Shown here: positions 27,421-46,360 of the stretch, in pieces
Layout: each line of letters starts with the position of its first letter
How positions within the stretch are numbered: the first letter of the stretch is position 1
Assembly (NCBI GenBank): GCA_034430595.1
Contig: DAOUEL010000078.1
Span: 141,160-205,159, forward strand
DNA from: Anaerolineales bacterium
GTDB lineage: Bacteria > Chloroflexota > Anaerolineae > Anaerolineales > E44-bin32
Direction: 5' to 3'
DNA length: 64,000 nucleotides
Position numbers and translations under genes: made by a program
Notes under the pieces: generated by a model
Told to the model about the DNA's origin: nothing
The model's input: only the letters and a program-made list of their open reading frames with translations
The model's database searches: none

Positions 27421-28002
27421 TCAGGGAGCGAACGGTCCGAGGACCTGCTGAAGCCAGGTGTCAAACGCGGCCGGCGCGAGTGCTTCAAATCCCCCCAGGA
27501 ACAGGCAGCTAAGGCCAGCCAGAACCACCAAGACGCCGAGAAATCGCAGCGGTATGTGAAGCAGCGCCTGCCATACACTTGTGTTCCAGTCCGGCGGTCC
27601 AAGCGCCATCCCGGTTCCGAGTCCGCCCAGGAGCAGTGCGGCTACTACCAACCCGGCGGCCGGATGCTGTTTCAGGTACTCCAGGAAGGACGCGTCAAGC
27701 CCGAAAGTCCGCAGCAATCCAATACCGAAGAGTGAGACCCCCAGAACGAAAACTGCAAAACCCCAGGGAACGGCAGCCGGGCCGAGGTAGGGGGAGCCTT
27801 CGCGGAAGAACTCAAGTACGCGCACCCGGCGGGTGGTGAAGGCGCCCAACCCGCTCAGGCTCAGGCCGAGGCCGAAAGCGAGCATACAGGCGGTGTAGAG
27901 CCACGGCCATTCGAACTGGCTGGCACCGACCAGCATCAGCAGCCCTAGCGCGAGGGCTCCGGTCTCAATCCATTTCAAACGCTCGAAGAATGTCTCTGTC
28001 AT
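27421..28002 (-). CDS. Small multi-TM membrane protein (194 aa), last gene of the secreted-protein cluster
   Basis: 5-6 hydrophobic segments; start 7 nt after the stop of the 999-aa gene. Confidence 0.75.
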   Translation of the reverse strand: MTETFFERLKWIETGALALGLLMLVGASQFEWPWLYTACMLAFGLGLSLSGLGAFTTRRVRVLEFFREGSPYLGPAAVPWGFAVFVLGVSLFGIGLLRTFGLDASFLEYLKQHPAAGLVVAALLLGGLGTGMALGPPDWNTSVWQALLHIPLRFLGVLVVLAGLSCLFLGGFEALAPAAFDTWLQQVLGPFAP

Positions 28003-28009
28003 CACCTGC

Positions 28010-31009
28010 TCACGGATTGGAGGCCGGCATCTGGGTGCTCCAGCTGGTCTTCGAGACGCAGGGCAGTCCAACCGTCTGATTATCGGCGCCCAGGGTCAGG
28101 AAATAGGGGCCACTCATGTTAAATGTGGCCTGTGATCCGTAGTAAAGCAAGTGCCACTGGCCTACGTCAAGTTCGGTGTATCCGGCGATGATCGTGCCGG
28201 GCGGCGATTGCAGGTCAGGCGAGAAGCCCGCCGGCGGGTTCCACGGTGAGCGGTCGAGCAGGATCGGGATAGTCATCGATGCGCCCGGATCGAGCGGCGG
28301 GATGTCCAGGCCGACTGCCTCGAAGAGCTGCCCTTCGATGTTCTCCCCGCCGATGGCGTTTGTCGCGTGGTTGTACACCGAGAGACCGCAGCGCTCGATA
28401 TCGGTTTTGGGGATCCCCGCTGTCTCGATCCGCCGGCTGACGCGCACTGTGAGCACGGCCGGCTGGACCGAGGCGAGTGGGTGCGGTTCCCACAGGTTGA
28501 AGGCCGTCTGGCCCGACTGCCCAAAGGGGCCGATGTCGAATGAGTCCGTGCCCGCTTTTAGGTTCTGCTTGATCACCGCCTCGCAGTCCTGGTCGCAGGG
28601 TATGCCCTGGCTGTTGAGATAGTCGGCAGCCTGCTGAGCGGCATGGTTCAGCGCCTGGTCGAGGTACTTCCCAGCGTCGAGGTCGCCCTTGACGGCATCC
28701 TTGACGATGCCCTTGCACAGATCATCGCAGTTGACGCCGTGCTTCTGCAGTTCTTCCTGGGCCAGCTGCAGGCCGTAATCCAGGCCCTCGTTGACCAGCT
28801 TGTCGGGATGCGCCAGCAGATCGAGGCCTTTGCGGATGGAATCCTGACACAGTGGGTCACAGCCGGTCACCTCGGAGATGGCAGTCTGGACCGCGTACTC
28901 GAGGCCCTGGTCCAGCAGTTGATCGAAATTTGGCAGTTCCGGAGGGATGCCAAGATAGGCAAGCCCGATATTGACCCCCAGGTTGATGGCAGCCTTGCAG
29001 GTGTCCTTCGCGTCGCCCGAGAACGCGGAACAGCCGATATTTCCCACGAAGTCGACCACGGCGTTCTTGAGGTTGTTATAGGTCTTGGCCACCCAGCTGA
29101 AGAAGTCCTTGACGAGCCCGCCGAGGGTATCGAGCCCCTTCTGCAGGTGGCAGGCCAGATTCCAGCCGCAGCCGCTGTCGGAAGACTTGCAGGTCACACC
29201 CGGACAGCCGCAGGAAAGAGAACCGGCCGGGAGCAGCGTGGTGCATGTGAGCTCAGGTTCGCTTGGGGAACTGTTAGGGTTGATGCTGTTCAGGATGTCT
29301 TCGAAGCTCTTCGTCCCTTGCTGGCTGCACTGCTGCAGCGGCTTGGAGAGCACCATGCAGGAGGCATAGCTCGGGTCAGCCGGACGGTAGGGCTGGAATC
29401 CAATCACCTGCACGTCATAGAGCGGGCCAGTCTCGGCGTTGACTGGAATCTGCTCCGGAGGCCCATAGCGAACGATCACCGTATTCGATGGTTGGAGCAG
29501 TTTTCCACCCTGGGCGATCGGGATGACACGGATGTAAAAAGTTGTCGGAAGCAGGCTGTTGATGTCCGTCAAGCGTTGGATCTGATTCTGCAGTGATTCA
29601 ATAGCTTGCTGGATAGCATTAAATGGATTGCTTGAAGGTGCCTGCCCTTCGGGGAAATCGATGTACTTCGAAAAATCAACCGAGAATTTTGCCGGAACAA
29701 GTTTGGTTTCCGAGGCTGGAAATGGAAAGCCGGATTTCTTCGTAACGTACTTTGGAGGCGATGTTTTTCCAGTGGCGATGACATCCGGCGTCCAGAACAG
29801 GCCCGATTCAAAGGGCTTGGTTGAAACCTGCCAGATTCCCGCATTGATGCTGCCTTCGAGCGAGGACCAGCGAAAGACCTGGTTATAACCCTGGAAGTAG
29901 CCTTCGATCGGGCTGGGGATCGTCCACTCGCTAACATAGCTGGTCTGGTTACGAATCGTGCCGATAATATCCAGCCGGGTTGTCGTGAGTGTACCCAGAA
30001 AGGCATAGGCCTGGTTCTCACCGAGAACGCCCCCTTGGCGGCCCAGATAAACCAGTTGTCCACCGTTCCAGCCCCAGGCTTCAGCCTCAAAGGGCGTGGG
30101 TTTGGGTAAATTCGTAAGCGCGTCAGGAGGGATGAGGCCGGCCAGGTCGTAGGCACCAGATGTTGGCTGCAGGAATGTGTTCTTGTCGCTCGGGAAGCGC
30201 AGCCATGGCCCGCCGGCAAGCGAGGCGTAGAGGTATAGCTTATCCACGGGTGACTTGGGAATCAGGATTCCATCCTTGATCACGAAACCGGGTGCGAGCG
30301 GCAGGTTCAACTGGGCCAGATTCACCTGCAGGGAGTTTGGCTGGGTGTTGTCAGCCGGCTCCGGCGTGGGCGGAAGCGGCTGCGAAGGCGGAGCCGCTGG
30401 TTGACCATCCTGCGGGCTCACAGGTGCGGAATTCGGAACCGGCACCGGGATACTGATCTCCTGGCCCAGTGCCAGCGAGGCATCAGGATCGAGACCGGGA
30501 TTTGAATCCAGGATTGCCTGCGGGTCGGTTTCGAATGCCTGAGCTAATCCTGCGACGGTCTCGCCGCCATCTGCGGTGAAAGGCAATGGAAACCGTACAT
30601 CCGCCTCTCGGATCGCGGTCAGGGTTAATGGCTCGGATTGTGTGATGTTGCCCTTTGTATCTGTAGCTCGCAGCAGAAATTTGTGCTGGCCCTCGCCCGA
30701 GGGCGTCCACGACCAAAACTCCTGCAGCACAGCTTCGGCCGGAGAATAATCTTTCGCCTCCCAGAGTTGATCATTGACCCATAGCTCGACCCGGGTGAAG
30801 CCAGGTGTTGAAAGACCTTCGCCGGCAATCGCGACGGTGCTGTGCAGTGGAACGGTTGAGCCGTCGGTTGGTTCAGAGAGGCTCAGCACCGAGCGGGTAG
30901 CGGCGTTGAGCTGAGCCACTTGCCAGGGTTTCCAGATCAAAAGGCCAGCTGCCAGGCCTCCGACCAGCACGACTGTGATAAGTAAGACAATCCAACGACG
31001 AGTACTCAT
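28010..31009 (-). CDS. Large surface protein: TM anchor, Ig-like domain, LysM, Pro linker, uncharacterised core with three CxxxC helical repeats
   Basis: N-terminal hydrophobic helix; Ig-like WTPSGEGQHKFLLRATD; LysM GETVAGLAQAFETDPQAILDSNPGL...LGQEISIP; core paralogous to 35324-37807. Confidence 0.85.
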   Translation of the reverse strand: MSTRRWIVLLITVVLVGGLAAGLLIWKPWQVAQLNAATRSVLSLSEPTDGSTVPLHSTVAIAGEGLSTPGFTRVELWVNDQLWEAKDYSPAEAVLQEFWSWTPSGEGQHKFLLRATDTKGNITQSEPLTLTAIREADVRFPLPFTADGGETVAGLAQAFETDPQAILDSNPGLDPDASLALGQEISIPVPVPNSAPVSPQDGQPAAPPSQPLPPTPEPADNTQPNSLQVNLAQLNLPLAPGFVIKDGILIPKSPVDKLYLYASLAGGPWLRFPSDKNTFLQPTSGAYDLAGLIPPDALTNLPKPTPFEAEAWGWNGGQLVYLGRQGGVLGENQAYAFLGTLTTTRLDIIGTIRNQTSYVSEWTIPSPIEGYFQGYNQVFRWSSLEGSINAGIWQVSTKPFESGLFWTPDVIATGKTSPPKYVTKKSGFPFPASETKLVPAKFSVDFSKYIDFPEGQAPSSNPFNAIQQAIESLQNQIQRLTDINSLLPTTFYIRVIPIAQGGKLLQPSNTVIVRYGPPEQIPVNAETGPLYDVQVIGFQPYRPADPSYASCMVLSKPLQQCSQQGTKSFEDILNSINPNSSPSEPELTCTTLLPAGSLSCGCPGVTCKSSDSGCGWNLACHLQKGLDTLGGLVKDFFSWVAKTYNNLKNAVVDFVGNIGCSAFSGDAKDTCKAAINLGVNIGLAYLGIPPELPNFDQLLDQGLEYAVQTAISEVTGCDPLCQDSIRKGLDLLAHPDKLVNEGLDYGLQLAQEELQKHGVNCDDLCKGIVKDAVKGDLDAGKYLDQALNHAAQQAADYLNSQGIPCDQDCEAVIKQNLKAGTDSFDIGPFGQSGQTAFNLWEPHPLASVQPAVLTVRVSRRIETAGIPKTDIERCGLSVYNHATNAIGGENIEGQLFEAVGLDIPPLDPGASMTIPILLDRSPWNPPAGFSPDLQSPPGTIIAGYTELDVGQWHLLYYGSQATFNMSGPYFLTLGADNQTVGLPCVSKTSWSTQMPASNP

Positions 31010-31090
31010 AAGTGTCTCCAGATCCCTGCCTGCAACGAAGGGTCGCTATCTAAACTCGAAAACCGGTAATGAAACCCATCGGCTCGGACA

Positions 31091-31993
31091 TCACCTGATC
31101 ACAGGCACGGTCGGCGTGACGGTCACCAGGATCATCGGCGGCAGAATGGTGATGGCATTGCAGCGCGCAAGCTGCAGGTCGGTGTAGACCGGGCTGCGCA
31201 CGAGTTCACCCTGGTTGGGCTGCAGCGCGAACTGGTAGTGCACGATGCCGCCGTCTCCGCCAAAGCCGCTCGTGCGTGCCAGGCTGTCACCGGTCTTCGT
31301 AATAGCGAAGGCCCCGTTGCCCTGAACGTTCATCGCTTCACCCTGGGACCAGGCAGTTTGCTCGCCGCTGGCCGCGTCCTCCACCCGGTAAAAGAACACC
31401 ACCACCTTTACCCCGCCGGCGGCACTGGCGCTGGCATGGAAGGTGACCTGCGCCGGGTCGCAGCTCGTCCCGCCGAAGTACACCCGCCCGGTGGAGAGCG
31501 GCAGGCCGGCAATACCGCCTGGCAAGGATGTTGAGGTTGGCGTGGGCGATGGGCTGGCGGTCGGCGTAGGGGTTTCTGTGGGACCGGTCGTTGGGGTTGG
31601 CGAGGGTGTGGCGATATCACCAACTGTAACTACGACCTGGGATGGATCGCTCCAGTTGCCATCGCCGTCCTGGGCGCGTACGGCCAATGTGTACCGCCCC
31701 GGCTCGGGCGGATGCCAGGTCCACTTGACGTGTGACAGGCGGTCGCCGGTATCGGCCGGGATTTCAGTCTCGGGCGAGGCACCGTTTACGGTGAACTCGA
31801 GTTGGGCAACCCCGGCCTGATTTGCGCCGTGCGCGATAACCTCCTGCGGGGCAAGCGGGAGCAAGCTGCCGTCGAGCGGCGCATCGATCCATGCCATCGG
31901 TCCGGTTGTGGGTGAATTGGTGCAGCTGGCGAGCAGGAGCAGTAGCCCCGGCAGAATCAAGCGAACTACTGCTGGTCGTGATGTCTTTGCCAT
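31091..31993 (-). CDS. Lipoprotein with Ig-like domain, Thr/Pro linker and C-terminal beta domain
   Basis: Lipobox LASC; WHPPEPGRYTLAVRAQD Ig-like strands; TPSPTPTT linker. Confidence 0.82.
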   Translation of the reverse strand: MAKTSRPAVVRLILPGLLLLLASCTNSPTTGPMAWIDAPLDGSLLPLAPQEVIAHGANQAGVAQLEFTVNGASPETEIPADTGDRLSHVKWTWHPPEPGRYTLAVRAQDGDGNWSDPSQVVVTVGDIATPSPTPTTGPTETPTPTASPSPTPTSTSLPGGIAGLPLSTGRVYFGGTSCDPAQVTFHASASAAGGVKVVVFFYRVEDAASGEQTAWSQGEAMNVQGNGAFAITKTGDSLARTSGFGGDGGIVHYQFALQPNQGELVRSPVYTDLQLARCNAITILPPMILVTVTPTVPVIR

Positions 31994-32316
31994 GAGCGAA
32001 CCATCCTTTGATCGAGGATTGACGTTGGCCGTGACACGAATCCATGGCCGTCACTCAATCTGCATCCTGCGGAATGAGCAATCCGATCGGTGCGCGCCAT
32101 ATCCGCACCGGTATGGCGGAATCCGGGCAATGCGGTTGTCGATGGTTGGGGGATCGATCGGCGGTCCGCGTCGTCCAAGCCTATGCGCGTTGTATACGAT
32201 AAATAAGCCCGACTACGTACGATATCAATAATATATTATGTGACAAAACCCCACTCGTGGCAAGGCGTGAATCCCCGGCGACGATCGCGCCGGTGAGATC
32301 CGGTTGCGAGCCGCGA

Positions 32317-32988
32317 TCAGGGCTGGCTGACCATGAAATTATCAAAAAGCACTTCCGTGACGCCGCTGCCCGAACCTCCAGCGCCGAAACCAACATCACC
32401 GGTAGGGATCTCGAGCTGCGCAGCATAGAGGAACTGAACGCCGTCAAGATAAACGACCATTTCCGTCCCCGTGCAGTCCAGTTCAAAGTGATTCTGAGAC
32501 GGGGCAACTCCACTGGGGAAGTCGTCAACCACGATCACCTGTTCATCTTCAAGGTAGGCGCCAATCGAAAGCATGCCATCGCCGTCGAGTTCGGCGTAGT
32601 AGTAATTTTCATTGTCCTGGTAGCGGCAGATCAGGTAGGCTCCGGCGCTCTCGGAGCCAGAGACACGTTCGGTGTCCACCTCCACCCGCACATCCCCGAA
32701 GCTGTGGCCGGATACTGCGAGCGGAAAGATGTATGGATTTTCATCCTGATCGATGCGGATACGGTATGCCCCTTCGTCATAGCCTCGAAAGTAATAGGTA
32801 TCGTCGATGGGCCAGCCGGAGCCGGGATTGGAAAAATCGTCAAAGAGAAGCACTCCGTCGGAGGAGGTTTTCGCCACCGTGCTCGGTGCTGCCGTATCTT
32901 CCGCAGGAGCTTCGTTTGAAGTTCCACAAGCCGCGCCGGCCAGGATCAATCCGGTCAGGATCAACGCGGGCCAGGATTTTCTCTTCAC
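32317..32988 (-). CDS. Lipoprotein with concanavalin A-like (DUF1080-like) beta-sandwich
   Basis: Lipobox GAAC; FDDFSN, FGDVRVEVD, GDVGFGA, FDNFMV; GTG 32988 chosen from RBS spacing (ATG 32994/33018 are alternatives). Confidence 0.78.
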   Translation of the reverse strand: MKRKSWPALILTGLILAGAACGTSNEAPAEDTAAPSTVAKTSSDGVLLFDDFSNPGSGWPIDDTYYFRGYDEGAYRIRIDQDENPYIFPLAVSGHSFGDVRVEVDTERVSGSESAGAYLICRYQDNENYYYAELDGDGMLSIGAYLEDEQVIVVDDFPSGVAPSQNHFELDCTGTEMVVYLDGVQFLYAAQLEIPTGDVGFGAGGSGSGVTEVLFDNFMVSQP

Positions 32989-33060
32989 GTGCATCCACTC
33001 CTCCATATTCATGTCCATCGGGCACCGGGATGATACCCGACGTGGGGTCGATCAACATTC

Positions 33061-35277
33061 CTAGTGGCGGTTGTATTTAATGGGTTTTGCCAATTGCCCA
33101 CCACCCAGATCGTAGGATAGATAAAGCTCGCCCGCCTTCTCATCACAGGTGTACTGTGCTGCCCCGGTCAGCCCATTTGAGAGGGAGGGTCCCATGCCAC
33201 TTAGCAGGTCACCGTCTCCAGGCACCTCCTGCCCATTGATCAGGATCTTTTGCGTCATGCTGACATTGTCGTCAAGCAGGGAGAAAATGAGGTGGTCGAC
33301 ATTGTCGTTGGCGTATTCGGCCGAACCGTCACCGGTGATGTCGAGCAGCACCTGGGCCAGCACGCCAAACCCAGAGCCGCCGCCGGTTTGATCCAGTTCG
33401 TAGGCCACGAAGTAGTTGTACTCTCCGGTGACGACCGACTGCTGTGTAAACTCCAGGCGCCAGACTCCACCCATGCTGTCGATGCTGAAGAACCCCGGAT
33501 CGGTATTCTTGAAAGGTGCCGCTAGGTACTCGGCGAAGCTGGGCGTATCGATGTCCCACACACCAATCAGGCAGGTATCGCAGGTCGTCTGCGCGGTGGC
33601 CGGCTGGTCGACGGTAATCTCCAGTTTAACCTGGCGGGGGTTGGCAAGAATGGTACCGGTTGCCGTGAAGAGGGCGACATAGTTCGCGCAGCCCGTCTCG
33701 CGATCGACAGCGACCGGAAGCCACTGCGTGGGTGTTGGTAGTGTCCCGATCACCTGCAGCACTTCCGCGTCCGTTTTCGCGAGAGCAATATGGAACCCTT
33801 TTCCAGGCCCGAGCGAGAGCAGGTATCTGCTCAACGAAAAATCTTTCACATCGAGGTCCAGTGGCTGGCTTGCCTTGAACAGGTATGTTTCGTTGTACTG
33901 GATCTCGGTCTTGATTTGCTTCTTGTTTGAATCCACAACTTCCCCGTTAACGAAGGCCTGACCGAAGGCATGCCAGATTTGGTCGATGTTGGTATAACCG
34001 CTCAGTGCTGCAATTTGCTCGGCCGCACCTCCCGATGTGGGCAACAGGGAAATCAAACTCAGGATGGCCGGGATGTCATGATCTGGGCGGTTGTTGAGGT
34101 ATTGAAAGAAGAGGTACGCCTCGTAGCTCATCTCGACGATCGGCTTGTAGCGCGAGTAGGAATTGAAGGTAGACAGCCAGCGGTGCTCCAGGTCTATCGA
34201 TGGATACACGAGATTGCTAAAGAACTCGGCCGAACCTTCCACCCACCAGTCGGATGCTTTGAGGACGACCTTTGGGACGGTGAAGTGTGTGTATTGAAAA
34301 CAGTGAAAGACCTCATGTGCGACGATCTGCTTGAAGGCCTCGGGTGTCTTGCCCAATGAAACGGGATAGAGCGCGATCGTGCAGGGATTTCCAGCCTGTG
34401 CGCCGGCCGAGTCAGCCCAGGTGACGAAATTATTCTTCTTGGGCAAATCGAGAACCGTAAAGACAAAGTTAATCGATTCCTGTGCACCGTAAGCGTTGTA
34501 GTGCTTGACGGCGGTCTGGGCTGCTTCGAAGGCCGCATCCACCCAGGGTTTCTGGGCACCGCCTTGTGATCCCCAATCGAGAGGATAGTAGAGGCGGTAG
34601 GTATTTCCGTTGAAGGAAAAATTTTGATATTGAAAACAGGCAATCGCCTTATCTTTAGGGAAACCGTCGAGAGCGAGGCTCTTGCAGTTTACCAGCAAAG
34701 TTCTGCTTGAAAGCCCGGGAGCGCGGGAAGCAGCCTGCTCAGCGGAAACGCTGTACGCATCGAGTGTCTCGGCGTCGGGGGATAGCGCCTGCAGTAAGCG
34801 CTGCAGTTCGGCAGTTGTCTGTGTATCGCCGCTCTGTTCGATATAACTGCGTACCAGACCCAGGAAACCGGTGGCCTCACCGAAGGTGACCTCGCCGATT
34901 TCCGGAACTGCCTCGGCCTCAAGCGCTCCGGCAAGGTAGCGGGTGAGAGTCAGCAGCCCCTGCTCCTGGCTCCATATTCCCGCAGCGATGTTTTGTTCGA
35001 GTAGCGCCCTGAAATCCGCCGGGAGCTCATTCGGTTCCTGGTAGGGAACCTCGAGCGGTCCTTCCAATGAGGTGGGGACAAGAGCAGAAGTATCAGCTGT
35101 GGATGACGCGGCACCGCCGTCCTGGTCCCCGGACGGACCATCAGAGGCTGCGCCATGCGTGCCTGCAGGGCGATTGCAGCCCGCGGATAGGAGCAGCACG
35201 AGCAGGAATGCTCCAATCATTGGCAGGATACGTTGCGGCGAATTGGTTTTCCACAGCTTTGGGCTGCTACGCTTCAT
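33061..35277 (-). CDS. Lipoprotein zinc metallopeptidase (HEXXH+E, gluzincin-like) with C-terminal beta domain
   Basis: Lipobox SAGC; AHEVFHCFQ followed by WWVEGSAEF; GGAG RBS. Confidence 0.8.
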   Translation of the reverse strand: MKRSSPKLWKTNSPQRILPMIGAFLLVLLLSAGCNRPAGTHGAASDGPSGDQDGGAASSTADTSALVPTSLEGPLEVPYQEPNELPADFRALLEQNIAAGIWSQEQGLLTLTRYLAGALEAEAVPEIGEVTFGEATGFLGLVRSYIEQSGDTQTTAELQRLLQALSPDAETLDAYSVSAEQAASRAPGLSSRTLLVNCKSLALDGFPKDKAIACFQYQNFSFNGNTYRLYYPLDWGSQGGAQKPWVDAAFEAAQTAVKHYNAYGAQESINFVFTVLDLPKKNNFVTWADSAGAQAGNPCTIALYPVSLGKTPEAFKQIVAHEVFHCFQYTHFTVPKVVLKASDWWVEGSAEFFSNLVYPSIDLEHRWLSTFNSYSRYKPIVEMSYEAYLFFQYLNNRPDHDIPAILSLISLLPTSGGAAEQIAALSGYTNIDQIWHAFGQAFVNGEVVDSNKKQIKTEIQYNETYLFKASQPLDLDVKDFSLSRYLLSLGPGKGFHIALAKTDAEVLQVIGTLPTPTQWLPVAVDRETGCANYVALFTATGTILANPRQVKLEITVDQPATAQTTCDTCLIGVWDIDTPSFAEYLAAPFKNTDPGFFSIDSMGGVWRLEFTQQSVVTGEYNYFVAYELDQTGGGSGFGVLAQVLLDITGDGSAEYANDNVDHLIFSLLDDNVSMTQKILINGQEVPGDGDLLSGMGPSLSNGLTGAAQYTCDEKAGELYLSYDLGGGQLAKPIKYNRH

Positions 35278-35323
35278 GGGTTCGTCTCCTTACTCGACAG
35301 TTCGCTCACGATGTGTGGCGGGT

Positions 35324-37807
35324 CTATTGCCCGAAAGACTGGTTCGGGTCACCCAGGATCGAAGCGCTCTTGCTGCAGGGGTTGTAAACCCACAGGTCCA
35401 TCTCGCCGTTCCAGTACCATGTGCTCCACGCGCTCTGTGCGTCGTTGTAGGAGGTCCACGGGTTCCCCCAGTAGTTGTTGATGGTCGGCTTCAGCACGAC
35501 CGGTACGAGCTGCGTTTCGCCCAGTCCCAGCTGGGGCAGCGGCACGTACATCGACTCGTACAGGTAGTACGCATAGTCAGCCTTCATCTTCTGTTTCGTC
35601 GATGAAATCCAGTCGTTGAAGTTCTGCGCGTGCTCGGCCGATACCACGACCGTGGTGTCAATAAAGAGCGTGCCCTTCTGCCCCGGCTGGCCGCTGCAGA
35701 AATCCGCTTCAAGCGGAACCGTGGGATCGCGCGTGACCTTGAGTATCATCGTCGGTGGCTGGTAATCCCCGAACGGATCGGGCTTGACGGGCACCCCGTC
35801 CGGTATCCAGCTTACGGAGCTGGAAAGCGCGTACTGGGCTGCTTCAAGCCCCTGCTGCAGGCCTTGCTTGAGCTGTTTTTCGGCCTCGGCCCGCCAGGCT
35901 GCTTCCGCCTCGCTGACTGCCAAATCAAAAGCCGCATCGGTCAGGAAATCCCCCGGTTTAATTGCGTCGGTGACCTCCGGGGGGATATTGAGCTGCGCTG
36001 CAGCCTGTGAAGCCAGGTACTCCAAGCCTTCGTTCATCAACTGGTCGAAATTCGGGATGCTGGGCGGGATGCCGAGCGCCATCAGGCCGGCATCGAGCAG
36101 CGTGCCCAGACAGGCTTTATTGCAGATCACGTCGGGCACGAAATTCGCCACGATGCTGACGACGGTGTCCTTGAGGTCGTTATAGGCGGTGCTGACCCAG
36201 TTCACCGCGTCGACGACAAAGTCGACCACCGCCTCGTACCAGGATTTGCTCTTCGGTTTGGGCGGGCAAAATTTATCGCCTGCTTTGTACGATGCCGGAA
36301 CGCCGCCGATTTTGACCGTGGTGTCTTTCGTGACGAGGTAGCAGCCCACATGCCCATTTTTGGGGGCGACGATGCCGTGGTAGCCGGCGATCTCAACGAT
36401 AAAAGGTTTGAGCGGCGGCGGCACCGGCGTCGGGCAACCTGGTGCGCTCGGATTCTGCTGGCATTCCTGGCCCTTCTTGATGACGTCGGCTAAGGGGTCC
36501 TCGCCGTACCACTGGATGCGCACCGGGTTGCTGGCCGAGCCTGCGGCCTGCTGGTTGTACACGGGTATGATCCGGAAGTAATAGGTGGTGATGAGCGGCG
36601 GCATGATCTTGCCAGTATCGACGAGGTTAACGAAGTTGCCAGGCTGCTGCGAGGCGCCCGTCATGATCGGCGCCCCGGGGGCCTCCGGCGTCTGCTTGGT
36701 AAAGATCGCTTTCACCCAACCCAGGAGCTGGTTGAACACCTTGCCCGCAGCCTGCCAGGCCTGCTGGAGGAAATTCTGCTTCGCCGGCTGGGATTGTGAG
36801 CCGGCTGGAGGCTCGATGGCCAGGCTCGAGACGTCGACCGTAAAGGTGCAGTTGACGCAGGTAACATCCCATTCAACGACCAATCCCGGCGGCGAGAACA
36901 GGTCGCCCTCCGTCTTGCTCGGAAACGGCATCAGGCTGGCTTGGAGTTTACCGCCCTGGATGTTTGGCAGGACCGTCTCCCACTTGAAGGTTTGATAATT
37001 GCCCTTCGGGCTGGTGGAAAACTCGATATCTGTTGTCCACACTCCTCCTGCAAAGACCTCCCCCATCTGTGCCCCTGGGATCGTCTTCCCCAGCGAGGAA
37101 GCTAGAAGCGAAGCGCCCCCGGGGAGAGCGAAGGTCGTGTGGATTGAGCTTCCCGGTGTCCAGTTGTCGATACCGCTCTCCTCGCCGGTCGGGCAGTCGG
37201 GCGAGTTCAGGTGCAGATCGAGGGCGAAGAGGTCGCCTGGCTTTGCCGGCGGCGGGTCGAAGACAAACAATCCGGATGCGCCGCCCGGCTGTACCGGCAC
37301 CCGGATCGATTCGCCCGAGGCCTGAATGTTCCTATAGATTCGCCGGAAGGTAAGCTTGACCTCCTCCGCTGGTGGATCGCAGCCGAGGATGGTAAGCGTA
37401 TTCGTACCACTATAGGGGACGACATCGACTGGCGCTTCGCTTGTTCCGGTCGCTGTCGGCGTCGGTGTGGGCGTCGCCAGACTCGAGGCCAGTGTGGCGG
37501 TAGGCGTATCCCTGCGCGGAGGTGGAGGGCTGGTCGGCGTATAGCGCGGGGGCAGCGTTGGTGTTGGGGTGGGCTGGCGGCCGATCGGCGTCGACGTCGG
37601 GATTTCACGCTGTGCCGGCCTGGCGAAGCTGACTTGACCATCCTCACTGATCACACCCGAGGCTGGCGAGCTCTCTCTAGGGGTTATGCTTCCAGCCGAG
37701 ACGGTCCCGACCGGCAAGAACGAGGTGGCGAGCACCGCGGCCAGCAGAATCAGATGTATGCCAACTAAGCGCACCCGCTGTTTCGGCCCTTTTTTTTGCT
37801 TTAACAT
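35324..37807 (-). CDS. Large secreted protein, paralog of 28010-31009 (signal peptide, Pro/Thr linker, uncharacterised core)
   Basis: ATG 37807 with GGAGGA RBS; signal peptide ending TVSA; shared blocks YYFRIIP, SNPV, NWVSTAYNDLK, LGIPPSIPNFDQL. Confidence 0.85.
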   Translation of the reverse strand: MLKQKKGPKQRVRLVGIHLILLAAVLATSFLPVGTVSAGSITPRESSPASGVISEDGQVSFARPAQREIPTSTPIGRQPTPTPTLPPRYTPTSPPPPRRDTPTATLASSLATPTPTPTATGTSEAPVDVVPYSGTNTLTILGCDPPAEEVKLTFRRIYRNIQASGESIRVPVQPGGASGLFVFDPPPAKPGDLFALDLHLNSPDCPTGEESGIDNWTPGSSIHTTFALPGGASLLASSLGKTIPGAQMGEVFAGGVWTTDIEFSTSPKGNYQTFKWETVLPNIQGGKLQASLMPFPSKTEGDLFSPPGLVVEWDVTCVNCTFTVDVSSLAIEPPAGSQSQPAKQNFLQQAWQAAGKVFNQLLGWVKAIFTKQTPEAPGAPIMTGASQQPGNFVNLVDTGKIMPPLITTYYFRIIPVYNQQAAGSASNPVRIQWYGEDPLADVIKKGQECQQNPSAPGCPTPVPPPLKPFIVEIAGYHGIVAPKNGHVGCYLVTKDTTVKIGGVPASYKAGDKFCPPKPKSKSWYEAVVDFVVDAVNWVSTAYNDLKDTVVSIVANFVPDVICNKACLGTLLDAGLMALGIPPSIPNFDQLMNEGLEYLASQAAAQLNIPPEVTDAIKPGDFLTDAAFDLAVSEAEAAWRAEAEKQLKQGLQQGLEAAQYALSSSVSWIPDGVPVKPDPFGDYQPPTMILKVTRDPTVPLEADFCSGQPGQKGTLFIDTTVVVSAEHAQNFNDWISSTKQKMKADYAYYLYESMYVPLPQLGLGETQLVPVVLKPTINNYWGNPWTSYNDAQSAWSTWYWNGEMDLWVYNPCSKSASILGDPNQSFGQ

Positions 37808-37884
37808 ATCGTCCTCCGGTGCAATCCGCACATCTATCGAGTCGGATCGGCTTGCCAAAGAATCCCGTTTTTGAATCCGTCCTG

Positions 37885-38532
37885 CTACGGCATGTGGGGA
37901 AGCGCCAGGCGGGCGATTTCCTGAGTCATGCTGAACGCCTGGTCCTGCTGATCCTCCGGGTGCCATGTGACGACCTGGAAGACCTGGTCCCCGACCCGTA
38001 CCCGCAGCAGCCCGGACATAAAGACTGCCTCGTCCCCTAGCCCGGCGACGGGGGTGGGAACCACCTCAAACATCGAAGCGCTGCTTTCGTTATCGGCCTT
38101 GAACTGGTCAGCCGTTTCATTTGTTACTTGCAGGATGATCATCTTGCCGCCAGACTGGCTGGTGAGCATACAGCTCCGGTAGGGGCCGATGCTCTCGGGC
38201 GCGGCATCCGTCGCCATAGGTTCCTCAAAGAAGCTTTCAACCTCGGCCTGGGTGAGCATTTCGCAGGGGTTGAAACCGGCCAGGATGTCATTTCCCCCGC
38301 CCGCAGGTGCTGGCGCATTGTTCTCGCTTTCCTGGGATGGTGGCAGCGCGCTTTCCGAGGCCGCAGGCGAGCTAGAGTTCTCATTGGATGGAGCCGCGGG
38401 GGCTTCTTCTTTCCCGCCGCAGGCGGAGAGCAGCGCCAGCATTAAAACCATGGCCGGGATTTGAAGCCGTAATCCGTGCCGGGAGTGGGAATCCTTCCAG
38501 AAGATAACAGGGGAATATTCGATTTTCGACAT
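37885..38532 (-). CDS. Lipoprotein, DUF3558-like
   Basis: Lipobox LSAC; NPCEMLTQAEV, SC, VAGLGDEAV pattern; ATG 38532 with AAGGAG. Confidence 0.7.
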   Translation of the reverse strand: MSKIEYSPVIFWKDSHSRHGLRLQIPAMVLMLALLSACGGKEEAPAAPSNENSSSPAASESALPPSQESENNAPAPAGGGNDILAGFNPCEMLTQAEVESFFEEPMATDAAPESIGPYRSCMLTSQSGGKMIILQVTNETADQFKADNESSASMFEVVPTPVAGLGDEAVFMSGLLRVRVGDQVFQVVTWHPEDQQDQAFSMTQEIARLALPHMP

Positions 38533-38648
38533 CGGTTGACTCCTTGTCTGTGTTTGTTTGTTTTGTTTTCTCTGTTGCAGCAGCCGACGTATGGAGGGGG
38601 CTCTGGGTGGTCGCATACGGCAGGCGTGGAAAACCAGTCCTCCCTCGA

Positions 38649-39368
38649 CTAGGGCTGCGTCACTTGAAGGTTATCGAAGCGGACTTCGCTGAAACCCAGC
38701 GAGCCTCCACCTGCGCCCAGGCCGATCTCTCCATTCGGGTAATAGGAGGCGTCGAATTCCCGTTCAAGCAGAAGCTCGCCATTCAGGTAGAGCGAAAGAT
38801 TTTTACCGATGCAGTCAGCCCGCAGATGGTTCCATCCGGGTTGGATCGTCCCTTCAGATAGCGGGTACATTCGGGCGATTTGCTCTTCACCATCGAGGTA
38901 GTCGGTGATCTCGGCCAGGCCATCGGCGCTGATCCGCAGGAAATAGAAATTGCCTTTGAGCTGGCTGCCGCGACAGATGATGTATGCGCCGGCTTCTTCG
39001 CCGGAAACGAAGCGGACGTCGACTTCGACCTGGACATCACCATAGCTCTCGCTGGATGACGCCGTGACGAGATCGTAGGCAGCCTGGTTATTGTTAATCC
39101 AGGCTCGGAACTCGCCGTCGGTGCACTCGTAGCCCTGGGTCGAGCCGGCTTGTAGCTTCCCGAAAAGGCAGTTTTGATTTGAGAAGTCATCCTGAAACGC
39201 AGCGCCGGATAACGCAGGCTGTGGAGATGGACTGCTGCACGCGGACAGGATCGAGATCGTCAATAGAAGGAGAATGACGGCAAGCTGTGGATGTGCTGGC
39301 TTGCTCCCTTCGGCGTGACCTTGTGCAAACGAATTGCTGCAGAAACGGGCCATTGTATTTGTCTCCAT
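38649..39368 (-). CDS. Lipoprotein with concanavalin A-like (DUF1080-like) beta-sandwich, paralog of 32317-32988
   Basis: Lipobox LSAC; FQDDFSN, YGDVQVEVD, GEIGLGAGG, FDNLQVTQP; alternative ATG 39353. Confidence 0.78.
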   Translation of the reverse strand: METNTMARFCSNSFAQGHAEGSKPAHPQLAVILLLLTISILSACSSPSPQPALSGAAFQDDFSNQNCLFGKLQAGSTQGYECTDGEFRAWINNNQAAYDLVTASSSESYGDVQVEVDVRFVSGEEAGAYIICRGSQLKGNFYFLRISADGLAEITDYLDGEEQIARMYPLSEGTIQPGWNHLRADCIGKNLSLYLNGELLLEREFDASYYPNGEIGLGAGGGSLGFSEVRFDNLQVTQP

Positions 39369-39379
39369 CTCTTCAGCCT

Positions 39380-39580
39380 CTAGGATTCCAGTTCAGTTCC
39401 GTCCACGTCTGGGGCTGTACCAGCGCCAGCGGAGGCATCGCCGAGATCGCGGTCAGGAACTTCATTTTCGATTCGATCAGCAAGCCTTCCCGGATCTTCT
39501 CCGGGCAGAACCTCAAACCAGCTCACCGACCATTCGGTGGTGTTGACCCGCCGGATCAGGCGGCGAAAGACACGGCGCAT
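39380..39580 (-). CDS. 66-aa small protein, first gene of the secreted-protein cluster
   Basis: GGAGG 9 nt upstream of ATG 39580; MRRVFRRLIRRVNTTEWSVSWFEVLPGEDPGRLADRIE...; stop 11 nt before the next start. Confidence 0.55.
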   Translation of the reverse strand: MRRVFRRLIRRVNTTEWSVSWFEVLPGEDPGRLADRIENEVPDRDLGDASAGAGTAPDVDGTELES

Positions 39581-39642
39581 GGGGGCATCCCTCCAGGTCG
39601 ACCTGATCTTATGACATCCCGAGAGCTGTAACTTGACATTTC

Positions 39643-39672
39643 TTGCCAAGATTGACGCCATAGCTTTATAAT
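39643..39672 (+). promoter_or_regulatory. Sigma70-like promoter for the XRE-NTPase-TPR regulator
   Basis: TTGCCA-N18-TATAAT in an AT-richer stretch about 120 bp upstream of the start. Confidence 0.5.
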
Positions 39673-39789
39673 GCAACCGGCCAGCACCCCTCTGCTGGCC
39701 TTTTAAGCAGAACACGAGCGTCTCCACGAACAGTACACCCCTTCTGCGGGGTAATCCGCCTGCGGAGCACTCGAGGAGATCGATCTTCG

Positions 39790-42630
39790 GTGGCTGGTTT
39801 GTCCCGGGTTCTTCAAGCTGAAACGTTCGGTGCCATGCTCCGACTGCTGCGCCGCCAGGCCCAGCTGACCCAGATGGAGTTCGGTATCCAGGTTGGATAC
39901 AGCGAGGCGCACATCTCGCGCCTCGAAGGCGAGCAGCGTACGCCAGACCCGGTGATCGTTGCCACACGCTTTGTACCGGCACTTCGACTCGAAGAAGAGC
40001 CTGAGACCGCCGCCCGGCTGGTCGAGCTGGCCGATCGGGCCAGTGGGGGCATACTGCAGAGCCTGCACTATGCGACCTTGTCGGCGGATAAACACGAGCA
40101 GCTGGAGGAAGTTGGTGCGCTGGAATCTGTCCCTGCGCCGCCCAGCGTGGAGGTTGAACGAACGGATGCGTATGACCGTCTGGCGTCACTCGTGAATAGC
40201 CAGGGAGCTGCCGCCTTGATCGGAATGCCAGGCATCGGAAAAACTACGCTCGGGTCCCGGATTGCACGCGAGCAGAAGGATCCGGTTTTCTGGGTCACAT
40301 TCAGCGCTGCGGTAAGCCCGACACTCGAAACGGTCATCCGGCAGCTGGCGCTCTTCTTACTGCTGGAGGGACAGGAGCAGGTCAGCTTCCTTCTCGGTTC
40401 AAGTACGCCGGCCCCCACGTACGATCAGCAGATCAACATCATCGCTTCTGCATTGGCCGAGACCCAGGCGCTGCTCTGCTTCGACGATGTCCATGAGTTA
40501 AAGGAAGAACTCGCGTGGGAGGCACTGCGGTGTTGGATGAAGGTGCAAGGATTGCACTTCCTCTTCATCAGCCGTGAGGAGCTGCCTGGTCTTGGTATTC
40601 CACAATTGCGGTTGGAAGGCCTGAACCGGCAGGAAAGCGAGGCGCTAATTCTTGCCATCGGCAGCGGCCTCGAGCCGGAGCTCGCCGGAAAAATACACGG
40701 CATCACAGCCGGAAATCCGATGCTGATTCGCCTTGCTCTGGGCCAGATGCTGACCGGCAGGCTCTCTGCCGGTCAGCATCTGGATGAGCTGGCACTTGAA
40801 CCGGCTGTCTCGGCCTACATCCTGGATGCCATCTTGAACGATCTTCACCCTGCCACCCGCCAGCTGCTGGCGTGGCTGTCGCTCTTCCGCTTCCCACTCG
40901 ATCTCTACCAGTCGGCGGTCGGGGATTGCCTGCGCGAGATCCTGCCCGAACCTGAAGCGCCGGCCCGGGCGATTGATGAAGCGCGCCGGCGCCAGTTGAT
41001 CGACCGGCCAACGCAGGCTGCCCTGCACCCGCTGATCAGCTCGCATATTCAACACCGATTAAAGACCGAGCCGGGTAACCGCCGCCAGCTGCATCTGCAC
41101 GCAGCCGAGTATCTGATGAGCGCCGGAGGCGGTGATGCAGCCGAGGCAGCCTATCACCTAGCCCAGGCCGGAGAATATGAAGAGGCCGTCGATTGGCTTA
41201 CCGATCAGGTGAGCGATCTGCGCAACCGTGGGTTAGCAGCGGACGCAGCCCAGGTTGTTGACGAGATGCTGGCTGAGCTGCCTGGGCCAGGTAGCGATGT
41301 CAGTTTGCAGCGCAGGCTGCAGACCTTGCTGGGCGACCTGCTTGTGAATACGACGCGCGCGCAGGAGGCTGAAGAGGCGTATCGCCGGGCACTGGACCTC
41401 ACTCCACGCGAACAGGTTGGGCCAGTCCACTGGTCCCAAATGGCGCTGCGCCTGGCAAACTGCCTGATGCAGCGCACCAAGGTGCAGGAATCGCTCGATC
41501 TGCTTCGAGAGGCGCTGACCGTAATGGGGGAAGGGTCGCCGCTGGTCCGGATCCAGCTTTCGGCTTCCATGGCGCGGGCCCAGCTAATGACGACACAGCT
41601 GGCTTCAGCCGAGGAGAGCGCTCGGGCTGCGCTGGCGATGGTGAAAGAGGTCGAAGCCTTCGCTCCACATGCTGCTGCGGAAGCCAGTGGAGCTGCCCAT
41701 AGCGTGCTCGGCATCATCCTGCGCATCCGGCGTGATTACACCGGCTCGATTGAGCACTGGGACCAGGCGATACGGGCAGCCCGGCGAACAGGTCAGCTAG
41801 AGATGGAATATCGTTCGATGGTCAACCTGGCCGGTACCTATTATGAGCAGGGCGATCTGGACCGTGCACTGGACATTTGTGAGAAAGCCCGGACAGGTTT
41901 GATTGCCATCGGAGACAGCTACGCGCTGGCACGGGTGCTCAACACCATGGCGCTGCTGCATCATGTGAGGGCTGAACTTGACCAGGCTCTGGAGCGCACG
42001 ATCGAAGCCCGCGATTTGAAAGCGCTCATTGGAGACCAGCAGGGATGGGCAAATAGCGAGGCGCAGCGCGCGATTATCCTGCTCAATCTCGGTCAAATCG
42101 AGCAAGGCAGGCAGGTGATCGAGAATGTTATCGAGGCCACTCGTGATACCGGTGAGCAGCGCGCTCAGGCAATCTACCTTGACACGCTCGGCATGGCACA
42201 ATCGCTGGATGGGGATGGGAAGCAGGCCGAGGTCACGCTCGAGCGTGCGCTCGCGATCTCGGGGAAACTCGAGGACAACCGACTGCGCGGGAACCTGGAA
42301 AATCACCTCGTCCAGGCTTATCTGGAACAGGGAAAACTGGCCGAGGCTGAATCGCTTGCCTTCGGGACAACTCCGGATGGCGCAGGCCCGGAAGTCGAAC
42401 TTGAACGGGAGCTCAACCGCTCGATGGTGCTGGCGGCAAAGGGTGAGACCCTGCAGGCAATCGAGGTGGCAGATTCCGCTGCTAAACAGGCAAGTGATGA
42501 GGGCTTCCAGCTGCTGGGGAGGCTGGCTGAACAGCTCGCCGTTTCCGCATCCGAGCGGCTGGACGGGGTCGAACTCCTGAGACGAGGCTGGGTGCTTCAA
42601 AGCGGAAAAACCCCCAAGCAGCGCCTTTAA
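39790..42630 (+). CDS. XRE-HTH + NB-ARC/STAND-like NTPase + TPR transcriptional regulator
   Basis: FGAMLRLLRRQAQLTQ...GYSEAHISRLE HTH; Walker A GMPGIGKTT; Walker B LCFDDVH; GNPMLIRL; long TPR-like C-terminus. Confidence 0.88.
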   Translation: MAGLSRVLQAETFGAMLRLLRRQAQLTQMEFGIQVGYSEAHISRLEGEQRTPDPVIVATRFVPALRLEEEPETAARLVELADRASGGILQSLHYATLSADKHEQLEEVGALESVPAPPSVEVERTDAYDRLASLVNSQGAAALIGMPGIGKTTLGSRIAREQKDPVFWVTFSAAVSPTLETVIRQLALFLLLEGQEQVSFLLGSSTPAPTYDQQINIIASALAETQALLCFDDVHELKEELAWEALRCWMKVQGLHFLFISREELPGLGIPQLRLEGLNRQESEALILAIGSGLEPELAGKIHGITAGNPMLIRLALGQMLTGRLSAGQHLDELALEPAVSAYILDAILNDLHPATRQLLAWLSLFRFPLDLYQSAVGDCLREILPEPEAPARAIDEARRRQLIDRPTQAALHPLISSHIQHRLKTEPGNRRQLHLHAAEYLMSAGGGDAAEAAYHLAQAGEYEEAVDWLTDQVSDLRNRGLAADAAQVVDEMLAELPGPGSDVSLQRRLQTLLGDLLVNTTRAQEAEEAYRRALDLTPREQVGPVHWSQMALRLANCLMQRTKVQESLDLLREALTVMGEGSPLVRIQLSASMARAQLMTTQLASAEESARAALAMVKEVEAFAPHAAAEASGAAHSVLGIILRIRRDYTGSIEHWDQAIRAARRTGQLEMEYRSMVNLAGTYYEQGDLDRALDICEKARTGLIAIGDSYALARVLNTMALLHHVRAELDQALERTIEARDLKALIGDQQGWANSEAQRAIILLNLGQIEQGRQVIENVIEATRDTGEQRAQAIYLDTLGMAQSLDGDGKQAEVTLERALAISGKLEDNRLRGNLENHLVQAYLEQGKLAEAESLAFGTTPDGAGPEVELERELNRSMVLAAKGETLQAIEVADSAAKQASDEGFQLLGRLAEQLAVSASERLDGVELLRRGWVLQSGKTPKQRL

Positions 42631-43298: not shown

Positions 43299-43311
43299 GC
43301 TTCAACGTCAA

Positions 43312-43342: not shown

Positions 43343-43374
43343 AAGGAGCTTCCGCCCCGGGGTGAAATGTGATT

Positions 43375-46352: not shown

Positions 46353-46360
46353 GGGGCGAC

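Follow-up and report, generated by a model that had tools for sequence, protein, structure and literature searches.

A cluster of nine co-oriented minus-strand genes, running from position 39580 down to 27421, was analysed in a 64,000-nucleotide stretch of DNA from an Anaerolineales bacterium (GenBank assembly GCA_034430595.1, contig DAOUEL010000078.1, positions 141,160 to 205,159; the whole stretch is referred to below as the window). Listing and translation of the open reading frames (ORFs) place a regulator gene on the plus strand facing the cluster. Comparison with related loci shows the cluster to be a real, clade-restricted and regulator-linked group of predicted exported proteins, not a chance run of ORFs. 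Its two largest products, the paralogs BIG1 and BIG2, belong to what is, by sequence, a new and unnamed family of large surface proteins, the BIG family; literature searches found no description of this family or of the cluster. The cluster is of a known kind, a regulated locus of surface proteins and hydrolases, and the core BIG family itself is new. The role proposed below, held tentatively, is that of an inducible, surface-tethered platform binding and trimming glycan-bearing polymers such as peptidoglycan debris.

The BIG family of large surface proteins

BIG1 (827 residues; 35324..37807, minus strand) is composed of a signal/anchor helix, a Pro/Thr-rich linker of ~100 residues, β-domains resembling immunoglobulin (Ig) and FN3 domains, a helical domain bearing the family signature, and a C-terminal β-sandwich. 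BIG2 (999 residues; 28010..31009, minus strand) harbors an N-terminal anchor, a Big_7-like Ig domain, a LysM domain, a Pro-rich stalk, β-domains, the helical signature domain and a C-terminal β-domain. The N-terminus of BIG1 is signal-peptide-like (…VSA/GS), and the N-terminal anchor of BIG2 looks uncleaved. The LysM match covers residues 149-188 of BIG2 (24.9 bits against a cut-off of 20.9, for a domain of ~43 residues) and is also annotated in most BIG2 homologs; the Big_7 match is sub-threshold, yet this region is homologous to the Big_7 domain of the Ig lipoprotein of the cluster (E 1e-5). The two paralogs share 25% identity across 442 columns (E 4e-18). The layout of BIG proteins is described as an anchor or signal peptide, a wall-binding module (Ig and LysM in BIG2; LysM, Big_7, SLH, Cu_amine_oxidN1 and others in distant members), a Pro-rich stalk and a head, the latter made of Ig/FN3-like domains, the helical G-[IV]-P-P-x-[LI]-P-N domain and the C-terminal β-sandwich. 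None of the 18 homologs of BIG2 (25-75% identity) is named, and both of those with an organism label come from Anaerolineales. Between residues ~715 and 830, after the family signature, BIG2 displays three C-D-x-x-C motifs ~45 residues apart (GCDPLC, NCDDLC and PCDQDC). These are kept in the consensus of the BIG2 subfamily, are absent from BIG1, and may represent disulfide-stapled helical repeats.

Both paralogs bear the family signature and match the BIG-family hidden Markov model (HMM), with E-values of 3.8e-181 and 1.6e-130. In alignments of 50-67 members, the signature extends over ~90 residues and reads W-[YF]-E…DF…A-V-N-W-V-S-x-A-Y-x-D-L-K…V-V…(C…C)…G-L…G-L-A-A-L-G-[IV]-P-P-S-[LI]-P-N-F-D-Q-L…G-x-D-Y-L-A. 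The family can be defined by the shorter pattern W-[YF]-E…DF…A-V-N-W-V-S-x-A-Y…K…G-[IV]-P-P-x-[LI]-P-N-[FL]-[DE]-x-L…G-x-D-Y, following an FN3-like strand pair, Y-V-R-V-x-P…G-x-P-S-N. In BIG1, the helical signature domain carries …AVNWVSTAYNDLK…GIPPSIPNFDQL…. Residues G579, P581, P582, P585 and R412 are invariant in 67 sequences, and N586, Y597 and Y410 are nearly so. Because this set of Gly, Pro, Asn, Tyr and Arg residues contains no catalytic-type combination, the family looks non-enzymatic, its invariant positions appearing to be of a structural or binding type.

A HMMER search with BIG1 as query over 1.84 billion cluster representatives (clusters at 50% identity) retrieved 542 proteins at E ≤ 1e-3, 229 of them at E ≤ 1e-10 and 39 at E ≤ 1e-30. 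With at least that many clusters and a striking invariant motif, BIG is a sizeable unannotated family of surface proteins. In every source its members are labelled "hypothetical" or named after an accessory domain. Among 50 distant members, the N-terminal accessory domains are LysM (8), Big_7 (4), and SLH, Cu_amine_oxidN1, FG-GAP, PAN, CARDB and BON (one each). A match to VasX_N, a pore-forming toxin of the type VI secretion system, was seen in one distant member; it is sub-threshold, falls inside FG-GAP repeats and was discarded as an artefact. The family has no match in Pfam, NCBIfam or the PDB, and BIG1 itself has none in Pfam, NCBIfam, PHROGs, PADLOC or PDB sequences: against the latter, no hit of the BIG core was better than E 0.5, and the BIG profile returned nothing.

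An AlphaFold 2 model of BIG1, computed from a 67-sequence alignment, reached a mean predicted local distance difference test score of 74.6 (64.8 for an earlier model from 27 sequences) and a predicted template-modelling score of 0.48. It displays an N-terminal helix (residues 8-28), the disordered Pro/Thr-rich linker, Ig-like β-domains (136-325), a β-region at 406-434 (YYFRIIP…GSASNPV, read as FN3-like) followed by further β-structure at 469-507, the signature-bearing helical bundle (523-664), and the C-terminal β-sandwich (674-819). The G-I-P-P-S loop is the least confident part of the helical bundle. Foldseek searches with the two models against the PDB and BFVD yielded only generic tandem Ig/FN3 structures with TM-scores ≤ 0.12, and the better model had no PDB match at E ≤ 1e-3. 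On the basis of the model, BIG can be read as a tethered stalk displaying a non-enzymatic head.

A motif scan of 185,579 species genomes (one genome per species) confirmed 141 BIG loci, a lower bound since the exact motif was required. The locus scan was run with a motif-only alignment, the full-length BIG alignment (A1) being too divergent for this purpose, and two of the three word-indexed homolog searches (alignments A1 and A3) added little, with 10 matches each. The hosts include Chloroflexota (Anaerolineae, Dehalococcoidia, Caldilineales), Caldisericota, the candidate phyla radiation (CPR; Falkow-, Wirth-, Sacchari-, Gracili- and Dojkabacteria), Bacillota (Clostridia, Erysipelotrichaceae, Christensenellaceae, Peptococcaceae and the isolate Phosphitispora sp. 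TUW77), and a few other metagenome-assembled genomes (MAGs). Members are found mostly in little-studied, often uncultured lineages (Chloroflexota, CPR, Caldisericota) with poorly understood envelopes. One BIG gene is shared, down to its BLAST statistics, by a MAG labelled Dehalococcoidia (L019:8198-10852; L numbers designate the loci compared) and one labelled Phycisphaerales (L021:686-3340), probably a binning or contamination conflict in public MAGs. Short BIG matches labelled Lysobacteraceae, Gammaproteobacteria and Methanotrichaceae may be similar conflicts.

The nine-gene cluster, its regulator and its relatives

Genes called independently on publicly available contigs from this organism (L003-L005) encode products of 66, 239, 215, 827, 738, 233, 300, 999 and 193 residues. 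They agree with the ORF listing and bear out the initial annotation, which had described nine co-oriented ORFs facing an XRE-NTPase-TPR regulator; its five lipoboxes, two large paralogs and small protein with several transmembrane (TM) segments were recovered by a scan for TM segments and lipoboxes and by the BIG1-BIG2 alignment. The cluster thus comprises five lipoproteins, BIG1 and BIG2, one small membrane protein and one 66-residue ORF. The most likely starts of BIG1 and of the DUF3558 gene upstream of it are at 37807 and 38532, giving products of 827 and 215 residues. The five lipoboxes (ILSAC, LLSAC, LSAGC, AGAAC and LLASC) lie at residues 20-44, each behind an N-terminal hydrophobic stretch. 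By signal peptide and lipobox Cys, the five products are bacterial lipoproteins (Lgt/Lsp substrates), their lipidation being predicted. The earlier description of the cluster as "all-exported" holds for eight of the nine products, which carry export signals, and not for the 66-residue ORF, which has neither a hydrophobic segment nor a lipobox.

The HExxH lipoprotein (738 residues; 33061..35277, minus strand; lipobox LSAGC) contains HEVFH…WWVEGSAEF. Four homologs, the most distant of them 27% identical, all retain residues H321, E322, H325 and E347, in line with the gluzincin mark noted initially. With its HExxH motif and a third-ligand Glu ~20-30 residues downstream, the protein is a predicted gluzincin-type zinc metallopeptidase. 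It stays below the family cut-offs of DUF6055 (PF19527; 24.1 against 27), MXAN_6640_HExxH (NF045524; 32.1 against 140) and flagellinolysin (NF033876; 19.3 against 205), and sequence and profile searches of the PDB returned no match. A metagenome scan with the HExxH alignment, in which most contigs were short, detected 74 loci, and in 34 the homolog is full-length (E < 1e-60). A BIG gene lies beside the HExxH gene in four loci (L093, L101, L109 and L120), out of 16 that have 2 kb of flank or more; among the 6 with 4 kb or more, it does so in 3. By our own estimate, chance would place a family of one or two copies within a 20-kb flank in ~1% of cases. Overall, HExxH homologs adjoin BIG genes in L002, L011, L089, L090, L091, L093, L101, L109 and L120, and from the BIG side the two are neighbours in about eight lineages; the linkage is recurrent, not obligatory.

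The cluster encodes two lectin-like lipoproteins. Lectin A (38649..39368, minus strand; lipobox ILSAC) matches PF06439 (3keto-disac_hyd), a ConA-like, DUF1080-type fold, with 38.8 bits against a cut-off of 26.8. Lectin B (32317..33018, minus strand; lipobox AGAAC) is a paralog of lectin A (36% identity, E 3e-28). It has no Pfam match of its own, and the lectin label given to both at the outset applies to it solely through this likeness. An ortholog of lectin B is present in L089 (59% identity), and a 60% identical homolog of lectin A adjoins a BIG2-type gene in L002. In four loci (L093, L101, L111 and L120), lectin and HExxH domains are fused in a single ORF. These fusions, and the lectin replacement in L090 described below, point to a functional coupling of lectin and peptidase. 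In L093 (1072-8437), three tandem HExxH paralogs lie directly downstream of a BIG gene; the first is fused to a lectin domain, and a DUF3558 lipoprotein sits between the first and the second.

The DUF3558 lipoprotein (37885..38532, minus strand; lipobox LLSAC) is encoded directly upstream of BIG1 and deserves its original label, since it matches PF12079 above the cut-off (43.8 bits against 34.1) over model positions 1-172 of 173. Its orthologs lie upstream of BIG1 in L010, L011, L090 and L168, and DUF3558-like lipoproteins are also found in L002, L093 and L101. The Ig lipoprotein (300 residues; 31091..31993, minus strand; lipobox LLASC) combines a Big_7 domain (29.6 bits against 24.1), a Pro/Thr-rich linker and a second, disulfide-containing domain. 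Its lipobox Cys is invariant in 11 homologs, and Cys and the AWIDAPL motif are invariant or nearly so. An iterative HMM seeded with this lipoprotein drifted into BIG through the shared Big_7 domain and was discarded in favour of a curated alignment. The small membrane protein (193 residues; 27421..28002, minus strand) has at least four hydrophobic segments, starts 7 nucleotides past the BIG2 stop, and has no family match in Pfam, NCBIfam, PADLOC or PHROGs. The 66-residue ORF (39380..39580, minus strand) has a basic N-terminus and an acidic C-terminus, and no TM segment or family match in the same four databases. It is probably a real gene, because its N-terminal ~35 residues are conserved (65% identical) at the same position in L089 and L090.

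On the BIG side, 88 loci were compared by BLAST, HMM and all-against-all clustering of the flanking ORFs, and six further contigs were added. The deepest conserved pair is formed by the Ig lipoprotein, with full-length homologs outside the window, and a BIG2-type protein, adjacent in 15 loci (the window, L001, L002, L007, L008, L011, L029, L030, L034, L089, L090, L101, L120, L166 and L167), which span Wirthbacteria, Saccharibacteria and Caldilineales, L029 and L034 being from the CPR. The membrane protein follows a BIG gene in seven loci (the window, L011, L089, L090, L091, L101 and L167). Gene neighbourhoods thereby show two pairings, of BIG2-type proteins with the Ig lipoprotein and the small membrane protein, and of BIG1 with the DUF3558 lipoprotein. 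In nine loci of Dehalococcoidia/Anaerolineae type, the BIG1-type gene is preceded by that of an unrelated anchored protein of ~250 residues, the stop of which overlaps the BIG start by 4 nucleotides in those checked (L015, L017 and L019). The possibility that this partner is a DUF3558 protein was considered and dropped, no relationship being detectable (hhalign probability 0.05). In Bacillota and Caldisericota, BIG is essentially solitary, and only generic two-component genes recur nearby.

Six component types (Ig lipoprotein, BIG, small membrane protein, DUF3558-like lipoprotein, ConA-like lectin and HExxH lipoprotein) recur together, in shuffled order, in about eight divergent lineages of Chloroflexota type, with identities down to 25-37% for BIG and 26-32% for the HExxH protein. 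In L011, the order is regulator, DUF3558, BIG1, lectin A, HExxH, lectin B, Ig, BIG2, membrane protein. L090 displays the regulator, a small ORF, DUF3558, BIG1 (45%), HExxH (67%), Ig, BIG2 (75%) and the membrane protein, followed by a 591-residue F5_F8_type_C (discoidin) lipoprotein (12393-14168). This locus has no DUF1080-type lectin, and the discoidin lipoprotein has apparently taken over, as a non-orthologous replacement, the place of the glycan-binding component. With 45% identity in L090 against 67-75% for its neighbours, BIG1 is the faster-evolving protein. L089 has no BIG1, and its order is regulator, small ORF, DUF3558, another HExxH paralog (31%), lectin B (59%), Ig (70%), BIG2 (69%) and membrane protein. 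In L091/L109, a BIG2-like gene is followed by a BTAD-NB-ARC-TPR regulator, a lipoprotein, HExxH (26%), a BIG1-like gene (37%) and the membrane protein. L002 contains an AAA_16/TPR protein, amidohydrolase and lectin lipoproteins, a PG_binding_1 protein, Ig, a BIG2-like protein (30%), lectin A (60%), a DUF3558-like protein and HExxH, and L101 the series Ig, BIG2-type, membrane protein, DUF3558-like lipoprotein and lectin-HExxH fusion. L120 and L002 harbor added lipoproteins that join Amidohydro_3 with PG_binding_1 or with a GH43_C2 ConA-like domain. L167 is reduced to Ig, BIG2, BIG1 and the membrane protein. In an Anaerolineales MAG (L168:1-6783), a flank syntenic with window positions 42678-48669 (PEMT/ICMT-VKOR-HIT-Metallophos) runs straight into DUF3558-BIG1, the regulator, the 66-residue ORF and lectin A being missing; by this alignment, these ~4 kb are an insertion or deletion between the two genomes. 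As judged from these loci, the nine-gene set is confined to a narrow clade. The recurrence as one system that was anticipated earlier is therefore found in part: the component types re-associate in about eight lineages, but outside the narrow clade BIG is usually solitary or otherwise partnered.

The regulator (946 residues; 39790..42630, plus strand) is composed of an XRE-type helix-turn-helix (HTH), a P-loop NTPase and TPR repeats, an architecture of STAND/MalT-like type. Its Pfam scores exceed the cut-offs for HTH_31 (36.6 against 27), AAA_22 (38 against 27), NB-ARC (27.8 against 23.5) and TPR_12 (71 against 30.1), and fall just under that of TPR_MalT (44.5 against 45). Walker A (GMPGIGKTT) and Walker B (LLCFDD) motifs are readable. 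By its NB-ARC/AAA_22 P-loop, TPR and DNA-binding domain, it is assigned to the STAND NTPase type; it stays far below the NCBIfam equivalog cut-offs for MalT (34.8 against 537) and AfsR (36.7 against 1430). Orthologs with 58-68% identity occupy the same divergent position in L011, L089 and L090. A STAND-type regulator is present on the contig in six lineages (L002, L011, L089, L090, L091/L109 and the window), with two or three kinds tied to the cluster, including the BTAD-NB-ARC-TPR kind of L091/L109, and none was found on the examined stretches of L093, L101 and L120. The view of the regulator as a co-occurring part is upheld by these six lineages and limited by its absence from L168 and by the different STAND type of other lineages.

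Between the regulator and the cluster, a block at 39633..39672 is retained in L089 and L090, though the surrounding intergenic DNA has diverged. It contains an inverted repeat, TTGACA-N5-TGCCAA (39633-39649), overlapped by a promoter-like site aimed at the regulator, TTGCCA-18-TATAAT (11/12 matches in a promoter scan), and is a candidate operator of the XRE-type regulator. The only long gap in the cluster, 323 nucleotides between lectin B and the Ig gene, contains a sigma-70-like site, TTGCCA-17-CATAAT (10/12 matches), followed by a leader of ~230 nucleotides (site and leader at 31994..32263, minus strand). Both hexamers and several blocks of the leader, e.g., CCGCATTGCCCGG..TCCGCC, are conserved in L089 and L090. 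Because of this conserved site, the cluster is probably divided at that gap into two transcription units, [66-residue ORF, lectin A, DUF3558, BIG1, HExxH, lectin B] and [Ig, BIG2, membrane protein]. This differs from the two modules drawn initially, [lectin, DUF3558, BIG1, peptidase] and [lectin, Ig, BIG2, membrane protein], as lectin B falls on the other side of the internal promoter. The leader has no Rfam match, and three sequences gave no convincing consensus structure; it could be an undescribed cis-regulatory RNA.

Unremarkable genes of the chromosome flank the cluster (DnaK, an Opp-type ABC system, MscS, glycosyltransferases, VKOR, HIT and an SbcCD-like gene). The GC content of the window is even and no tRNA genes or Rfam elements were found in it, so that nothing suggests a mobile island. 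The Opp-type peptide ABC system (SBP_bac_5 and two permease-sized ORFs; 17757-21594) lies ~6 kb off the cluster end; being absent from the examined contigs of L089, L090 and L091, it was excluded from the cluster. The adjoining segment 22750-26922 encodes a GT2 glycosyltransferase, a PIG-V-like GT-C mannosyltransferase with 7 TM-like segments, and a 544-residue protein with 8 TM-like segments and no Pfam match. Several cluster proteins, encoded near these glycosyltransferase genes, contain Pro/Thr-rich linkers, which are typical sites of O-glycosylation. A Cupin_2 gene (26988-27311, minus strand; 107 residues in the public gene calls) is co-oriented with the cluster ~110 nucleotides downstream of the membrane protein gene; it could belong to the unit as its tenth member, and L089 too has a Cupin_2 gene downstream.

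Possible roles of the cluster

In the role tentatively favoured here, an accessory, regulator-linked operon pair would give a Chloroflexota (Anaerolineae-like) cell a surface-tethered protein assembly. The STAND regulator would sense a small-molecule ligand via its TPR/NTPase part and turn on the divergent operon. Complexes of BIG and its partners would form a scaffold reaching through and past the wall, BIG2 being held by its anchor and LysM domain. The lectin modules would catch glycan-bearing polymers (peptidoglycan fragments, glycoproteins or cell debris), the peptide parts of which the tethered metallopeptidase would trim at the cell surface. In sister loci, the peptidoglycan-binding amidohydrolases would do related work. 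The main purpose of the assembly would be the scavenging of cell-wall or glycoprotein debris. This reading draws on a gene content that is accessory, shuffled and expanding by paralogs, as is typical of substrate-use loci, and on the recurrent neighbourhood. It also draws on the fusion and swapping of lectins, on modules that bind peptidoglycan, and on regulators of a catabolic style, with their conserved operator-like inverted repeat. Several observations weigh against it. No uptake transporter is conserved with the cluster across the examined loci, and the regulator is dispensable, being absent from L168, a close relative, in the same chromosomal position. Most HExxH homologs are solitary among housekeeping genes. 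The head of BIG has no detectable ligand-binding or catalytic homology, and the PF06439 match of lectin A is a fold assignment, not proof of glycan binding. Finally, BIG is solitary in most phyla and is retained with the Ig lipoprotein in CPR genomes despite their small size, as would be expected of a structural or adhesive protein more than of a catabolic one.

A role in envelope architecture is possible, if somewhat unlikely. BIG would act as a structural tether, joining cytoplasmic membrane and peptidoglycan to a sheath or outer layer of protein, the lipoproteins and the peptidase acting as assembly or maturation factors. A TM anchor, a LysM or SLH domain, a Pro-rich stalk and a non-enzymatic head suit a tether, and such a role accords with a protein that is solitary in Bacillota and Caldisericota and kept together with the Ig lipoprotein in reduced CPR genomes. 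Glycosyltransferase genes adjoin the cluster, and the envelopes of Chloroflexota have been reported as atypical and multilayered (PMC13319060). Envelope-biogenesis genes are, however, usually a stable core, whereas the cluster displays two paralogs, shuffled accessory hydrolases and ligand-type STAND regulators. The family is also sparse and patchy in its spread, even allowing for the confirmed loci being a minimum, and BIG1 changes faster than the genes around it.

Rather unlikely is a broader proposal, according to which BIG and the Ig lipoprotein would make up an unrecognised envelope-spanning surface structure with a new fold, common to Chloroflexota, CPR/Patescibacteria, Bacillota and Caldisericota. 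The invariant loop would serve as the contact to an envelope ligand or partner that is universally conserved, and the Anaerolineae-type cluster would be a lineage-specific elaboration docking lectins and hydrolases under a ligand-gated STAND switch.

The cluster might also serve the producer's own wall, as an autolysin-like set trimming its peptidoglycan peptides (at filament septa, in fragmentation or in turnover) with BIG and LysM positioning the hydrolases. The LysM domain of BIG2, the PG_binding_1-amidohydrolase lipoproteins of L002 and L120, and an Rpf-like DUF348-G5-3D gene near the BIG gene in L166 could be accommodated in this manner, and the enzymes, all membrane-tethered, would act near the wall of the cell that makes them. 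This is unlikely: neither Pfam nor NCBIfam detects an amidase_2/3, NlpC/P60, M23, GH25/73 or LD-carboxypeptidase domain in the window cluster, the lectin-peptidase fusions and lectin swapping suggest varied glycan targets, and the gene content is accessory and variable.

Still less likely, the genes would not form one system at all, and two or three independent units, namely an Ig-BIG2-membrane protein unit, a DUF3558-BIG1 unit and a lectin/peptidase set with its own regulator would have been co-located by lineage-specific rearrangement. The conserved internal promoter sets the first unit apart, L167 lacks peptidase and lectin, L168 has DUF3558-BIG1 without regulator, and solitary HExxH lipoproteins and solitary BIG genes abound. 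The re-association of the same component types, in new orders and with paralogs, in about eight lineages is nonetheless hard to explain without selection for linkage.

Contact-dependent antagonism or predation, among the uses first proposed, is very unlikely: surface display, LysM, lectin and peptidase could in principle bind and damage a neighbouring cell's wall, and M. abscessus expresses DUF3558 lipoproteins together with secreted substrates of ESX-4 (PMC13491425), but the cluster has no toxin, pore-forming or polymorphic C-terminal domain (the C-terminus of BIG is conserved across the family, not variable). It also shows neither a pattern of immunity genes nor any machinery for secretion, and it has no match in PADLOC or PHROGs.

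Whatever the role, the complete gene set is limited to a few uncultured lineages, and its function is deduced here from sequence. The locus may provide a concrete gene set (BIG, Ig lipoprotein, membrane protein, DUF3558 lipoprotein, lectin-peptidase pair and STAND regulator) for polymer capture and processing at the surface of Anaerolineae-type bacteria, which are common in sediments and digesters. If the cluster serves ordinary scavenging, its value is mainly one of annotation; if BIG forms an envelope organelle, it bears on monoderm and atypical envelope architecture.

Comparison with known systems

No secretion-system, surface-layer (S-layer), defence or phage marker was found among the cluster products in Pfam, NCBIfam, PADLOC and PHROGs, beyond low-complexity linker matches, which agrees with the initial view that none of the products is a component of a known secretion machine. 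The HExxH lipoprotein shares with MXAN_6640, DUF6055 and flagellinolysin proteins the HExxH motif, the downstream Glu and a local active-site similarity. The matches to these families are, however, sub-threshold and cover ~100 residues, leaving N-terminal and C-terminal regions of ~300 and ~170 residues unmatched. The regulator resembles the MalT/AfsR-type STAND regulators in combining a DNA-binding domain, a P-loop NTPase (AAA_22/NB-ARC) and a TPR sensor, with weak similarity to their models. It differs from them by its N-terminal XRE HTH (HTH_31), MalT possessing a C-terminal LuxR HTH and other members an N-terminal SARP/BTAD domain.

With the mycobacterial DUF3558 lipoproteins of the SigM/ESX-4 regulon (PMC13491425), the cluster shares a DUF3558 gene placed beside that of a large exported protein, the two being presumably co-expressed. 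The cluster contains no ESX, WXG100 or PE/PPE genes, and the phylum and the envelope differ; it offers a second, independent genomic context for DUF3558 lipoproteins, in addition to the mycobacterial one beside secreted ESX-4 substrates. BIG recalls the LysM/SLH-anchored and S-layer-associated proteins of monoderms by its N-terminal wall-binding module, Ig/FN3-like stalk and distal head. In contrast to these, its head, with the GIPPSLPNFDQL signature, occurs in no described family, and BIG has no LPxTG sortase signal and is not a known S-layer protein.

In its logic, the cluster most resembles the substrate-induced loci for the utilisation of glycans and other polymers at the cell surface, i.e., the Sus-like polysaccharide utilisation loci (PULs) of Bacteroidota and their Gram-positive counterparts. 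Both display the generally known traits of such loci, a dedicated regulator beside surface lipoproteins with binding modules and hydrolases, as well as shuffling, paralog expansion and fusions. Unlike PULs, the cluster has no SusC/TonB transporter, conserved ABC importer or glycoside hydrolase. Its enzyme is a predicted metallopeptidase, and its core of BIG and Ig lipoprotein has no counterpart in PULs.

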